This document shows positions 30,001 to 36,000 of a stretch of 64,000 nt of DNA, piece after piece. Made by a program: the position numbers. The stretch is from assembly GCF_048403405.1 (NCBI RefSeq), contig NZ_CP183135.1; one strand, 5' to 3'. Source of the DNA: Escherichia coli. GTDB taxonomy: Bacteria; Pseudomonadota; Gammaproteobacteria; Enterobacterales; Enterobacteriaceae. The first letter of the stretch is position 1; each line of letters begins with the position of its first letter.

Positions 30001-33000
30001 GCCGAGAAATTGAGATGGCATACGGCCTGAAGGGACTGGAGGTGACGGAAGAGGTCTTCGAATCCCCTAACTCTATCGTCTTTGATGAAGCAGAAAACCG
30101 CATGCATACCATTAAAGCGGTCATGGTGGCGACACTCGGCGACTAATCACCACCCGGTGCGTCGTAGGGGGCACCGGGTCTCAGGAGAACATCATGGGTA
30201 AGTTCAAATTTCCCTCCGCATATACCATTCTCTTTTTTCTGATTGCCATCGTTGCCGTCCTGACGTGGATCATTCCAGCCGGGCAGTATCACATGGCAAT
30301 GAACGAAGCTCTCGGCAAGGAGGTTCCTGTTGCCGGCACCTATGCACACGTAGAGGCCAATCCGCAGGGACTGATTTCAGTGCTGATGGCCCCAATTGCC
30401 GGGTTGTATGATCCAGACTCCGGTCAGGCTAGGGCGATAGACGTTGCGCTGTTTATTCTGATCATCGGAGGATTCCTCGGGATCGTCACCAAAACCGGGG
30501 CCATTGACGCCGGAATCGAGCGCGTCACCACCCGACTACGTGGTCGCGAAGAGTGGATGATCCCGATCCTTATGGCGCTGTTTGCTGCTGGCGGTACAAT
30601 TTACGGCATGGCCGAAGAATCCCTGCCGTTTTATACCCTGCTGGTGCCGGTGATGTTGGCAGCACGCTTCGACCCTGTGGTAGCCGCCTCCACCGTGCTG
30701 CTCGGCGCCGGGATCGGCACGCTCGGCTCCACCATTAACCCTTTCGCGACGGTGATCGCCGCCAATGCAGCCGGGATCCCCTTCACCAACGGTATCACCT
30801 TGCGTGTGGTGGTGCTTGTCATCGGCTGGATAATCTGCGTGACATGGGTGATGCGCTATGCCCGGAAAGTTCGCAAGGAGCCGTCTCTCTCCATTATTGC
30901 GGATAAACAAGAGGAGAACCTCGCCCACTTCCTCGGCAATAAAAGCGAACAGGCTCTGGAGTTCACCCCGGTACGCAAAATTATTCTGGTGATTTTCGCC
31001 CTTACCTTCGCGGTCATGATCTACGGCGTGGCGGTGCTGGGTTGGTGGATGGCGGAGATCTCAACGGTATTTCTGGCCAGCGCAATTATCATCGGTCTGA
31101 TCGCCCGCATGAGCGAAGAGGAACTGACCTCTACCTTTATCAACGGCGCGCGAGATTTGCTGGGCGTTGCACTGATTATCGGTATCGCGCGCGGTATCGT
31201 AGTGATCATGGATAAAGGTATGATTACCCATACTATTTTGCACTACGCCGAGGGAATGGTTACTGGATTATCGACAGTAGCATTCATCAACGTGATGTAT
31301 TGGCTGGAAGTGGTGCTGTCGTTTCTTGTGCCTTCTTCGTCCGGTCTGGCCGTTCTGACGATGCCGATCATGGCACCTCTTGCCGACTTCGCTAACGTCA
31401 ACCGCGACCTGGTAGTTACGGCTTACCAGTCTGCGTCCGGTATCGTTAACCTGATCACTCCCACCTCTGCCGTTGTGATGGGCGGACTGGCTATCGCCCA
31501 CGTGCCTTACGTGCGATATCTGAAATGGGTTGCGCCGCTGCTTGGGATATTAACAGTGGTAATTATGGTGGCATTAAGTCTGGGGGCATTGTTGTAATTT
31601 GCCGGATGGCGCTGCCCCTATCCGGTCTACGGAATGGTGTGGTGTCACCGGTTATTTCGAGAACTGAATATAGGATTATGATGGATTACGAAGATTTCTC
31701 TCCCAAAGAGCAACTACAGCTAACGGTCTGCCAACGTCTGATTGCAGAAAAGAGCTATTTTTCCCAAGAGGAGCTTCGCCGCGACTTACAGGAGCGTGGT
31801 TTTGAGACAATCAGCCAGTCCACCGTTTCTCGTCTGCTCAATTTGTTAGGTGTCATAAAAATTCGAAATGCCAAAGGGCTAAAAGTCTATTCGCTGAATC
31901 CACAGTTGCGTCCGGCTCCTGATGCCGCGCGCACTGTGTCCGAAATGGTGGTGAGCGTTGAGCACAATAGAGAATTTATCCTTATCCATACCGTTGCTGG
32001 ATATGGCCGCGCAGTGGCACGTGTCCTTGATTATCACCAGTTACCAGAAATTTTAGGCGTGGTGGCCGGAAGCAGTATCGTCTGGGTCGCTCCTCGGATG
32101 GTGAAGCGTGTCGCTCTGGTGCATAAGCAAATTAATTATTTACTAAGAACGTATTAATATTCACAAATGCCCGCTTGTATTGACTAATACGTAAGCGTCA
32201 ACGGAGCACCGTATTGACGCTTATTTATTGGTGAGAACTACGTTCCATGGCAGGAGTTCGTCAACACGGTTGGAGGGCCATTCCGGCAGTACGCTCAGAA
32301 TATGGCGCAGATACGCTTCCGGATCGATACCGTTCAGACGGCAGGTGCCGATCAGCCCGTACAGCAGTGCACCACACTCGCCGCCGTGATCGCTACCGAA
32401 GAACACGTAATTTTTCTTTCCGAGACAGAATGCACGAAGCGCTCTTTCCGCTGTGTTATTGTCCGCCTCCGCCAGACCGTCATCACTGTAATAACAGAGG
32501 GCGTCCCACTGATTCAGTACATAGCTGAACGCTTCGCCCAGCCTGGATTTTTTCGACAGCGTGCCTGAGCCCGCAGATATTCTATTTCCCGTTCATCTTC
32601 TTCGATCTTTTCTTCGGCACGTGCCAGTGCAGAGCGCAGGAAGGCCTCCGTCTCTTCAACCAGACTCAGTTGCTGGTCTTTCTGACGGAGCTGGCTTTCC
32701 AGTTCTGCAATGCGAATGAGGTATTTCTGACTCATGGCCGTTTTTATAATGCGGCCAGGCGTTTTTTACAACATTGTCAGGGCGTTAAGGCGGGATGTTT
32801 TTGGCTGACGCCAGTCCAGCTTATCGAGGAGCATTGCCAGTTGCGAGCGGGTAATGGATACCTTGCCGTCACGTACCACAGGCCAGATAAACTGGCCTTC
32901 CTCCAGGCGTTTGGTGAACAGGCACAGACCATCAGCATCAGCCCAAAGAATTTTAACGGTGTCACCCCGTCGGCCACGGAAGATAAACAGGTGACCGGAG

Positions 33001-36000
33001 AAGGGATTATCATTCAGCACATGTTGTACCTGTTCTCCCAGTCCGTTGAAGGATTTACGCATATCGGTAACGCCGGCAACGAGCCAGATACGGGTACCTG
33101 ATGGGAGTGAGATCATCTTCCCCTCCCGGTCAGTTCACGAATCAATACAGTGAGCAGCTCTGGTGAAGGATTTTCCAGCGTCATGTTACCGTGACGGAAC
33201 TCCACCTTGCAGGAGCTGGCACTGACAGTAGTCTGAGTGGATAAGGACGGAGTAAGAGCAGCCATCGGTTCTTTCGGCTCATCAGGCGTTATCTCTACAG
33301 GTAATAATTCAACGCCTGCGTCAGAAGTGGTTGTCACCGGAATACGCCGTGATATACGCCCTTCGTTTTGCCAGAGTCTGAGCCATTTGAAAATAACATT
33401 ATCATTGACGCCATTTTCTCGTGCAATCTGGGCCACACAAGCACCGGGTTGTGATGCCAGTTCAACCATACGAATTTTGAATTCATTCGAATACTTTTTA
33501 CGAGGTTCTTTTCGTCAGTCCTGTAATTCCATACTTAGATGTCCGTCTGTGTCAGATGGGCGTCTAAGGGTAATGACTCCAACTTATTGATAGTGTTTTA
33601 TGTTCAGATAATGCCCGATGACTTTGTCATGCAGCTCCACCGATTTTGAAAACGACAGCGACTTCCGTCCCAGCCGTGCCAGGTGCTGCCTCAGATTCAG
33701 GTTATGCCGCTCAATTCGCTGCGTATATCGCTTGCTGATTACGTGCAGCTTTCCCTTCAGGCGGGATTCATACAGCGGCCAGCCATCCGTCATCCATATC
33801 ACCACGTCAAAGGGTGACAGCAGGCTCATAAGACGCCCCAGCGTCGCCATAGTGCGTTCACCGAATACATGCGCAACAACCGTCTTCCGGAGACTGTCAT
33901 ACGCGTAAAACAGCCAGCGCTGGCGCGATTTAGCCCCGACATAGCCCCACTGTTCGTCCATTTCCGCGCAGACGATGACGTCACTGCCCGGCTGTATGCG
34001 CGAGGTTACCGACTGCGGCCTGAGTTTTTTAAGTGACGTAAAATCGTGTTGAGGCCAACGCCCATAATGCGGGCAGTTGCCCGGCATCCAACGCCATTCA
34101 TGGCCATATCAATGATTTTCTGGTGCGTACCGGGTTGAGAAGCGGTGTAAGTGAACTGCAGTTGCCATGTTTTACGGCAGTGAGAGCAGAGATAGCGCTG
34201 ATGTCCGGCGGTGCTTTTGTCGTTACGCACCACCCCGTCAGTAGCTGAACAGGAGGGACAGCTGATAGAAACAGAAGCCACTGGAGCACCTCAAAAACAC
34301 CATCATACACTAAATCAGTAAGTTGGCAGCATCACCTATTGCAGCGTTACTTATCCGGATTATCCTCAGAAGTGTAAATCAGCATTCTCCTTTGCTGATG
34401 CAATTGCATGCGGCAGGTATACGGACCGGTGATGCAGAGCGAATACTGTCCAGCGGTGAATGCTGGCAACGTCAGAAGACGCTGCTGACAGGAAGGGAAG
34501 TCAGTTTTATGAAAGGACTGTTCAGAATTGTGGATATGAAGCGGTGGTATCTGTGTCCGCAGGTACGGGTCGCGGATATCGTCCAGCTGAACGGGAATAT
34601 CCGGCCACGATCACGCCAGTGGTGGCAGTTATTCAGGATGGTGTCTCAGTGGCATGTTGATGTGGTTATCGTTGAGCGGCGTTCGTTCAGTATTGTTGCA
34701 GCAGTAGAGCTGGATGATGCCAGTCATTTACGACCGGAACGCAGACGCCGGGATATTCTTCTGGAAGAGGTTCTGAGGCAGGCTGGTATTCCGTTGCTCA
34801 GAAGCCACGATGCCAGAAAACTGCTGCAGATGACCGGAGAATGGCTGAATACAACAGGGGCTGATCAGCAGTCCCCGGAACATCGTAGCTGACGCCTTCG
34901 CGTTGCTCAGTTGTCCAACCCCGGAAACGGGAAAAAGCAAGTTTTCCCCGCTCCCGGCGTTTCCATAACTGAAAACCATACTATTTCACAGTTTAAATCA
35001 CATTAAAGGGCTGCGTTTGGGAAACGTACAATATTGTACGGTTGCGTTATCGCGCTCGGGTGTACTCCCGTGCTATACGGCGTTTTCAGAGGATTTGACC
35101 TCAATCGGATAACCTAAATGCAATACTGCAATGGCGATAACTTAAAAGGGATAGACGTTGACGCAAAATCAATCTGTTATGCATATCTATTGGTTAAATA
35201 ATGCGCTTAACGTTCAAAATTTTTCGATCTCCAGACTGCCCCCGTTCAGCTCGCATAGGAATTATGGGAGAGGATTTTGGCTGAACCGGACAGATATAAA
35301 CCCGTTACTTTTTATACCTTACAGATATGGTTCTTTTGACGTAATTCTTACCAATTTCATAGTCCGGGTTCCATGTCGCCAGATTATGGACACCGATTGC
35401 GGCAGCACTCACAGCTCCCAGAAGTGCTGTTGGTGACCATAGGGAGCCTGCCACCGCAGTGCTTCTGTATTCGGTGTATACGCGGCAGGTTAATTTCTTC
35501 TGCTGATGTTCAATCACATACTCCACTATTTTGACGGTTTCACTGATGTCGTTAACATTCGTGATATCAAAACTTTTGCGGTAAAAAATCAGGTCGTGTA
35601 GTTTCTGTTTGGTCAAAAATTCTGCGTTGAACGACTCAATCTGTACCGTTTCTGACATCCGTTGTTCCTCTCTTTCTTGGAGTCTGTGAATTTCCCTAGG
35701 CACGCGCCTTACGGTCAAACGTTGCACTTTTTCAGGGGCAGTGTATGTCAGAAAAGAATATATTGACTTGTATAAACGATCAATAATAAGAAATTGATCG
35801 TCTTAACTGTAAGCGTAAACCGACTGCCGTATGTGGGGGCGGTTTGGAGATCGGACATTTTTGTACTATAAGGGCTTCCCCGAACAGTCAACGTCGGTAT
35901 TTATGGTTTGTGTCTGCACTACAGTTAAAAATAAAGGGGAGAGACTGCGGTACTATAAACGGCCATAATGAATCGCTATCGATTCGGACCCTGATGAAAG

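Follow-up and report, generated by a model that had tools for sequence, protein, structure and literature searches.

Downstream of argR on an Escherichia coli plasmid, a shortened IS66-like sequence directly abuts a copy of IS1, and the question is whether this sequence is a natural short variant, a mobile derivative or the remnant of an element that once was complete. We examined it within a window of 64,000 nucleotides (contig NZ_CP183135.1, assembly GCF_048403405.1; all coordinates below refer to this window). The first-pass annotation had described it as a non-functional IS66 fossil with a large internal deletion in tnpC next to an intact IS1, and this description holds. The element itself, the deletion, the identity of its TnpB to that of a first IS66 copy, the IS1 and the truncation of the neighboring DUF2726 gene all stood up, and one part, the loss of the 5' region of tnpA to IS1, did not.

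The relic occupies positions 32191-33568 on the minus strand (1378 bp) and aligns as two collinear pieces to intact elements at other loci (L002, L003, L004, L009, L010 and L011), with BLAST E-values of 0. Its closest intact relative is the 2505-bp element at positions 914-3418 of plasmid unnamed2 of E. coli MDP9-27 (NZ_CP146514.1; L011), whose proteins are named 'IS66 family' alone in RefSeq. In the alignment the two are 97.3-97.6% identical over the retained parts, with no gaps. They share a 420-bp tnpA, a 351-bp tnpB and the same terminal repeat, whereas L011 has a full 1593-bp tnpC, a stop-free tnpA and both ends. Relative to L011, the relic carries three lesions, namely the tnpC deletion, the loss of a 49-bp terminus and a nonsense mutation in tnpA, and its length is what remains of a 2505-bp parent once the 1078 bp deleted internally and the 49 bp of the terminus are subtracted. 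The element begins exactly at 32191 with the terminal repeat GTAAGCGTC. This tnpC-side inverted repeat is intact (32191-32220, minus strand; GTAAGCGTCAACGGAGCACCGTATTGACGC), is the same as the ends of intact elements in three unrelated contexts, and lies downstream of argR, 33 bp from its stop codon.

The gene set tnpA, tnpB and tnpC keeps the order and overlaps seen in intact relatives, and Pfam searches detected HTH_Tnp_1 in tnpA, TnpB_IS66 in tnpB, and both DDE_Tnp_IS66 and DDE_Tnp_IS66_C in the 3' fragment of tnpC, which places the relic in the IS66 family. It is a truncated member and not a complete one: of the two terminal inverted repeats (GTAAGCG...) only the one at 32191 is present, and in place of a complete DDE transposase (TnpC of ~530 aa) there is a gene from which residues 58-416 are gone and in which the frame is shifted. 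Assignment to the ISEc23/ISEc43/ISEc47 group, names that are RefSeq/PGAP transposase assignments, is supported. Elements of this group (2532 bp) have the same tnpA-tnpB-tnpC organization and terminal repeats and are 92-98% identical to the relic by segment, but tnpA and tnpC are longer in them, by 6 and 21 bp, respectively, and the right-hand piece is 91.8% identical. The relic is a different member from the first IS66 copy in the window, an ISCro1-like element at 20305-23012. The latter shares the family, the three-gene layout and the Pfam domains, but it is 2708 bp long, has intact tnpA, tnpB and tnpC genes, encodes a 225-aa TnpA, is flanked by an 8-bp duplication and sits in an IS1. The earlier estimate of about 70% identity between the two TnpB proteins was accurate (76/108 positions, against the TnpB at 21036-21383), and their DNA is ~71% identical.

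On the other side of the relic, the IS1 (IS1A-like) lies at exactly 33569-34336 on the minus strand and was correctly recognized as intact. It is 768 bp long with imperfect terminal repeats of ~23 bp at both ends (GGTAATGACTCC... and ...GGCAGCATCACC), and the reading frames of insA and insB (91 and 167 aa) are open. The A6C motif of the -1 frameshift site of insA/insB' is found at 34024-34032 (plus-strand GTTTTTTAA, that is, TTAAAAAAC), and RefSeq annotates an 'IS1-like element IS1A family transposase, programmed frameshift' with no pseudogene flag. All of these features are those of the IS1 family. A 9-bp target-site duplication, as left by a simple insertion, is lacking, the flanks being GCGTCTAAG and TATTGCAGC; such non-matching flanks are consistent with a deletion or recombination that took place at IS1 later, and family membership is not affected. 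Beyond IS1 is a plus-strand backbone gene (34337-34892; Pfam DUF2726, E=4.7e-21), whose homology starts 35 bp into the intact gene, which measures 591 bp in uninterrupted backbones (L005-L007). The apparent start codons of this gene at 34314 and 34323 fall inside IS1. Thus, the first 35 bp are cut off, and the earlier view that IS1 disrupts the start of a 189-aa ORF was right.

The same IS1 also closes, on the right, a module of 14.1 kb that is bounded by IS1 (20200-34336), in which an IS1 split by the ISCro1-like element is followed by part of a second FII replicon, a VENN pseudogene, arcA-arcC-argF-yfcC-argR, the IS66 relic and the intact IS1. At the left boundary (20200-23683, minus strand), IS1 positions 1-105 and 98-768 flank the ISCro1-like insert. 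Comparison with the uninterrupted IncFII backbone revealed that positions 1754-2500 of L005 are replaced by window positions ~20200-34336. Lost with these 747 bp were hha, the greater part of a nuclease gene and 35 bp at the start of the DUF2726 gene. Although two directly oriented IS1 copies bracket the cargo, the module does not have the structure of a composite transposon: the sequences outside the pair, CTTTTCATG and TATTGCAGC, do not match, the backbone lacks 747 bp between them, and one of the two copies, the left one, is interrupted.

This arrangement bears on the suggestion that the site is an insertion hotspot, at which the IS66 element and IS1 arrived independently, IS1 simply inserting into the relic at a late stage. 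Several IS elements are indeed clustered between finO and repA in the window, and in an unrelated plasmid (L006) an ISCro1-like element lies within the finO-repA interval, ~135 bp from the site of IS1#1. To this extent the hotspot idea is loosely supported, in that the interval takes independent IS elements in other plasmids. However, the relic and the IS1 form the edge of one module that replaced 747 bp, so repeated independent hits at the site are not required, and the relic travels with argR in nearly all of its carriers (296 versus 297 genomes). The IS1 itself has no 9-bp duplication, faces IS66 sequence on one side and plasmid backbone on the other, and lies where 49 bp of the IS66 element and 747 bp of the backbone are gone; it thus marks a rearrangement boundary and not a simple insertion. 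We therefore consider independent arrival at a hotspot very unlikely.

By translation, alignment and codon comparison, tnpA (33113-33532, minus strand) is 420 bp long, the length found in L011, and its codon 6 (33515-33517) has changed from TGG to TGA. This stop is why the gene appears short, and in RefSeq it is annotated as an ORF of 120 codons that begins at a start codon further downstream. The first-pass annotation had attributed the shortness to IS1, as if IS1 had inserted into tnpA and taken its 5' coding region. This reading draws on the mechanically called ORF, which has 118 codons as compared with 139-141 in intact relatives and ends ~100 bp from IS1. However, the tnpA ATG (33532) and the 36 untranslated bp of IS66 sequence that precede it (33533-33568, minus strand) are retained, and what is missing is the non-coding terminal 49 bp alone, including the terminal repeat. 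The alignment thus refutes a loss of tnpA coding sequence to IS1, leaving that reading extremely improbable. Intact elements run 49 bp beyond the IS1-side end of the relic and terminate in ...GTTTACGCTTAC; a search for this missing terminus in the whole window, with up to 3 mismatches allowed, gave 0 matches. That tnpA is 6 bp shorter than in the ISEc23/ISEc43/ISEc47 group does not count as a further lesion, the closest intact relative having the same 420-bp gene. The adjacent tnpB (32766-33116, minus strand) is open and encodes 116 aa (Pfam TnpB_IS66, E=2.3e-36), with 114/117 positions identical to the TnpB of L011. Relative to L011 there are 11 synonymous and 3 nonsynonymous changes in tnpB, and 2 synonymous and 6 nonsynonymous changes, including the stop, in tnpA; these counts are uninformative on selection because they are too few and mix changes from before and after inactivation.

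The largest lesion is in tnpC, where the two alignment pieces meet at 32565 (junction 32565/32566), within the range of 32410-32580 that had been proposed for it. The pieces fall at positions 1288 and 2366 of L011, and the intervening bases in L002, L003 and L004 number 1077, plus a shared C, so that 1078 bp of tnpC are absent with a 1-bp microhomology (C). On one side of the junction is the tnpC 3' fragment (32221-32565, minus strand), which by translation encodes the C-terminal ~115 residues of TnpC (about 417-530), matches DDE_Tnp_IS66 profile positions 222-283 of 284 as well as DDE_Tnp_IS66_C, and is labeled in RefSeq as 'IS66 family transposase, incomplete, missing N-terminus'. A 73-codon ORF (32514-32735, minus strand) from the ORF list spans the junction; compared with the TnpC of L011 (530 residues), it begins with residues 1-57, the coiled-coil N-terminus, and continues for 16 codons out of frame, and a search for an IS66-specific Pfam domain in it found none left.

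To determine how widespread these structures are, we counted the junctions in 5426 complete E. coli genomes. The argR/IS66 junction was present in 297 genomes, the tnpC deletion in 296 and the IS66/IS1 junction in 309; among the records listed that carry it, each junction occurs at one place per genome. The tnpB-tnpA segment is at least 99% identical in exactly 296 records, and relic junctions were found in 251 PLSDB plasmids. The module is thus carried by ~300 sequenced E. coli IncF plasmids, corresponding to ~5% of complete E. coli genomes, and all ~300 copies of the relic have all three lesions. Since the deletion junction is found once per genome in 296 of 5426 genomes and nearly always next to argR, the tnpC deletion is a single inherited event. 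We also searched PLSDB for argR adjoining an intact element, using a chimeric query made of window positions 32041-32565 and the L003 continuation, and found none: the best matches span the IS part alone (86% of the query, from positions 145-151), with argR absent. As 86% of this query is IS sequence, it is the ranking of the matches that is informative, and not the number with at least 80% coverage.

The census also bears on whether the short tnpC could be a natural variant, or the relic a mobile non-autonomous derivative that full-length relatives move in trans. An open tnpB, one intact terminal repeat and the abundance of full-length relatives in E. coli are compatible with such a role. On the other hand, 1078 bp is not a multiple of 3 and its removal left two out-of-frame fragments, tnpC is full length in every relative at other loci, the short form occupies one locus per genome in the records listed, with argR alongside in nearly every carrier, and the second terminal repeat is absent. 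The short tnpC is therefore a deletion, as originally proposed, and the odds that the relic is a natural variant or a mobile derivative are very slight indeed. An assembly artefact, in the form of a mis-joined repeat, has a negligible probability: one plasmid, pI1-34TF (L008, H245), has a scaffold linker of Ns exactly at the expected IS1 position, but identical junctions recur in ~300 independently assembled complete genomes and 251 PLSDB plasmids. This linker also led us to reject pI1-34TF as a copy lacking IS1.

It is very probable, then, that the relic is a fossil of a 2505-bp parent of the ISEc23/ISEc43/ISEc47 group, which inserted near argR and was inactivated three times. The intact tnpC-side end suggests that insertion and then decay took place in the argR context, the parent having presumably landed 33 bp downstream of argR in a plasmid-borne arginine-deiminase (arc) cluster. 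In this reading, illegitimate recombination at the 1-bp microhomology then deleted 1078 bp of tnpC, so that TnpC lost its zinc finger along with most of the DDE domain and the frame was shifted, and the TGG to TGA change put a premature stop into tnpA. An IS1-associated rearrangement probably took the 49-bp end with its terminal repeat, either by insertion followed by adjacent deletion, or by recombination between IS1 copies, or by cointegrate resolution. The anatomy, the three lesions, the replaced backbone and descent from a single event are seen directly, and we infer both the order of events and the candidate IS1 mechanisms. With no transposase and one end alone, the relic should be immobile even with help in trans, and it would be carried passively.

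Three reading frames are still open in the relic, namely tnpB, the 118-120-codon tnpA remnant and the 73-codon coiled-coil TnpC N-terminal peptide, and they are unchanged in ~300 plasmids. They might conceivably act in trans on intact IS66-family elements of the same cell, for instance as dominant-negative or accessory factors, or the relic end might provide regulatory signals for the adjacent argR/arc cluster, but it is very unlikely that the relic has such residual activity. Recent common descent accounts fully for how uniform the copies are.

The module at 20200-34336 has already been described in the literature, and the details of the relic do not make it a new kind of object. An 'IS66-IS1 module' that combines an additional FII replicon with the ADI (arc) cluster was reported on plasmids of the IncF group (Garcia-Fernandez et al., 2020, mSphere, PMC7193042); as presented in the parts of that article on the module, its gene content and IS66/IS1 boundaries are the same as those found here, and these parts do not give the base-level anatomy of the relic, with 1078 bp deleted from tnpC, a premature stop in tnpA and 49 bp lost from one end. 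In the relevant part of another article (PMC7671891), the arc operon on ESBL plasmids is credited to Billard-Pomares et al. (2019). Our results imply no new biology and in this respect matter little. They correct a misreading at the annotation level, in that IS1 does not truncate tnpA, and they show that the arrival of the module was not a simple insertion but cost the plasmid 747 bp of backbone. Moreover, the exact anatomy of the relic, with its deletion at 32565, the stop at codon 6 and the 49-bp loss at IS1, provides a lineage marker for the arc-carrying IncF module.

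The window is a portion of an E. coli IncF plasmid. Many RefSeq plasmids match 31500-35200 at 100% identity, and at least 80% of this segment is held by 276 complete genomes. According to RefSeq (p4_2_1.1, positions converted to window coordinates), the features here begin with argR and continue on the minus strand with an 'IS66 family transposase, incomplete, missing N-terminus' (32221-32568), a 73-aa hypothetical protein (32514-32735), tnpB (32766-33116), a 'transposase' in the tnpA region (33113-33475) and an IS1A-family transposase with a programmed frameshift (33584-34281), followed by a DUF2726 protein on the plus strand (34314-34892). 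The first-pass annotation had described 32191-34336 as a degenerate IS66 relative abutting an intact IS1, and every detail of that observation held except one, the claim that IS1 truncates tnpA. Its coordinates were exact: the IS66-type terminal repeat (GTAAGCGTC...) starts at 32191, and IS1 ends at 34336.

With the relic (32191-33568) as query, thousands of related full-length elements were found, aligned in two pieces. Six intact relatives were fetched for comparison (L002, L003, L004, L009, L010 and L011). All six were collinear with 32191-32565 and with 32565-33568, and all six had 1077 extra bases plus one common C between the two pieces. Therefore, the relic has lost 1078 internal bp across a 1-bp microhomology, and the junction at 32565 lies inside the range previously proposed for it (32410-32580). 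The deletion length is no multiple of three; the 5' fragment of tnpC encodes residues 1-57 followed by 16 out-of-frame codons (the 73-aa ORF), and the 3' fragment encodes residues ~417-530. Pfam recovered only positions 222-283 (of 284) of the DDE_Tnp_IS66 profile and the C-terminal domain from the relic; in the intact first IS66 copy of the window the leucine-zipper, the zinc-finger and the entire DDE domain were also found. The nearest relative was a 2505-bp intact element on plasmid NZ_CP146514.1 (L011, 914-3418), with 97.3% identity over 1003 bp, 97.6% over 378 bp and zero gaps, and the lengths agree (2505 - 1078 - 49 = 1378 bp, as measured for 32191-33568). The relic tnpB is open and its product differs from L011 TnpB by 3 residues. 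Slightly more distant were 2532-bp relatives whose transposases are assigned by RefSeq to the ISEc47, ISEc23 and ISEc43 family.

The claim that IS1 had removed the 5' region of tnpA could not be sustained. Intact elements run 49 bp past the point where the relic joins IS1. Still present in the relic are the ATG of tnpA (33532) and the 36 bp preceding it, so what was lost to IS1 is confined to the non-coding end that carries the inverted repeat. This 49-mer was searched for through the rest of the window and was not found. Read from the ATG at 33532, tnpA has its full length of 139 codons, as in L011, with TGA in place of TGG at codon 6 (33515-33517); the 118- to 120-codon ORFs in the mechanical ORF list and RefSeq are downstream restarts. 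Thus, tnpA was inactivated by a point mutation, and the relic carries three lesions.

To count these junctions, 200-bp probes centred on each were searched in 5426 complete E. coli genomes. The argR-IS66, tnpC deletion and IS66-IS1 junctions were present in 297, 296 and 309 genomes, respectively. Among the matches listed, the IS66-specific probes hit one place per record; the remaining matches cover one half only and break at the junction. Over tnpB-tnpA, exactly 296 records were at least 99% identical, and the next best was L011 (96.8%), then lower. In PLSDB, 251 plasmids carry at least 80% of 32041-34486, and none has argR adjoining an intact element. Taken together, the census, the identity gap and the PLSDB result show that the copies share common descent and that the short tnpC is a unique deletion fixed within one plasmid-module lineage, neither a natural variant nor a mobile derivative.

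The neighbouring IS1 (33569-34336, 768 bp) is intact as previously described, with two terminal repeats, open insA and insB and the A6C frameshift motif; its flanks (GCGTCTAAG and TATTGCAGC) lack a 9-bp target duplication. Uninterrupted IncFII backbones (L005-L007) have the order traX, finO, small ORF, nuclease gene, hha, DUF2726 (591 bp), copB, tap and repA. Homology to them resumes exactly at 34337, 35 bp into the DUF2726 gene, and therefore IS1 does disrupt the start of the 189-aa ORF. The predicted start codons of this ORF fall within IS1, and its DUF2726 domain is whole (Pfam). Exactly at the place of IS1, NZ_LN850163.1 (pI1-34TF) has a scaffold linker, NNNNNCACACACTTAATTAATTAAGTGTGTGNNNNN (5528-5563), followed by sitABC; it was rejected as a different structure, the linker being an assembly gap at a repeat.

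Relative to L005, the window lacks 747 bp of backbone (1754-2500), comprising hha, most of the nuclease gene and the 5' end of DUF2726; in their place stands 20200-34336, a 14.1-kb segment bounded by two directly oriented IS1 copies. Within the left copy (20200-23683), which marks the left edge of the arc module, lies the intact ISCro1-like element of the IS66 family (20305-23012, 2708 bp) that the first-pass annotation called the first copy; IS1 positions 98-105 occur on both sides of it as an 8-bp duplication. Next come a hok/gef gene, a partial second FII replicon, a VENN-motif pseudogene, arcA-arcC-argF-yfcC-argR, the IS66 relic and IS1. Comparison of the outer flanks of the IS1 pair revealed no target duplication. 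Given this and the lost 747 bp, the IS1-bounded module was substituted for backbone and not simply inserted.

The partial replicon (24451-25596, versus 37428-38573), just downstream of hok/gef, contains copB, tap and the 5' part of repA and is ~84-85% identical to FII replicons of reference backbones; its repA is truncated near 25596-25600, adjoining the frameshifted VENN-motif pre-toxin pseudogene. An unrelated plasmid (NZ_OZ462643.1, L006, 1-1753) has an ISCro1-like element in the same finO-to-nuclease-gene interval, ~135 bp from the left IS1 site, which is independent IS traffic. Between the DUF2726 gene and copB, a 2.4-kb insertion (35008-37427), absent from reference backbones, contains an IS110-family transposase (36130-37191, minus) and a hypothetical ORF (35305-35727, minus, 117-140 aa) without a Pfam match, bracketed by imperfect 105-bp inverted repeats (73%; 35108-35212 and 37234-37338). 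Of a third IS1, in inverted orientation, only positions 293-768 remain (41443-41918, 98% identical), and its cut end (41918) faces a perfect direct repeat of at least 300 bp (42508-42807/54807-55106). This repeat and a perfect inverted repeat of 1316 bp, whose two copies lie 14 kb from each other (45903-47218 and 61223-62538), probably belong to the resistance region, as repeated IS or integron segments.

As to mechanism, an IS66 element would have transposed beside argR, its tnpC-side end being intact and the argR stop 33 bp away. The 1078 bp may have been lost by slippage or illegitimate recombination, and IS1 would have inserted at a point 49 bp short of the element's opposite end; it might then have been linked to the plasmid backbone, either by an adjacent deletion that IS1 mediated or by recombination of one IS1 copy with another. 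All copies found bear all lesions, and these steps may have come in any order.

Epidemiological work on the plasmid-borne arc operon has been published (cited in PMC7671891). According to Garcia-Fernandez et al. (2020; PMC7193042), the ADI cluster came with an extra FII replicon, the two 'acquired together in an IS66-IS1 module', a description that exactly matches the structure of 20200-34336. With no transposase and one terminal repeat gone, the relic is immobile, even with transposase supplied in trans; it is an ordinary IS fossil, already annotated and published.
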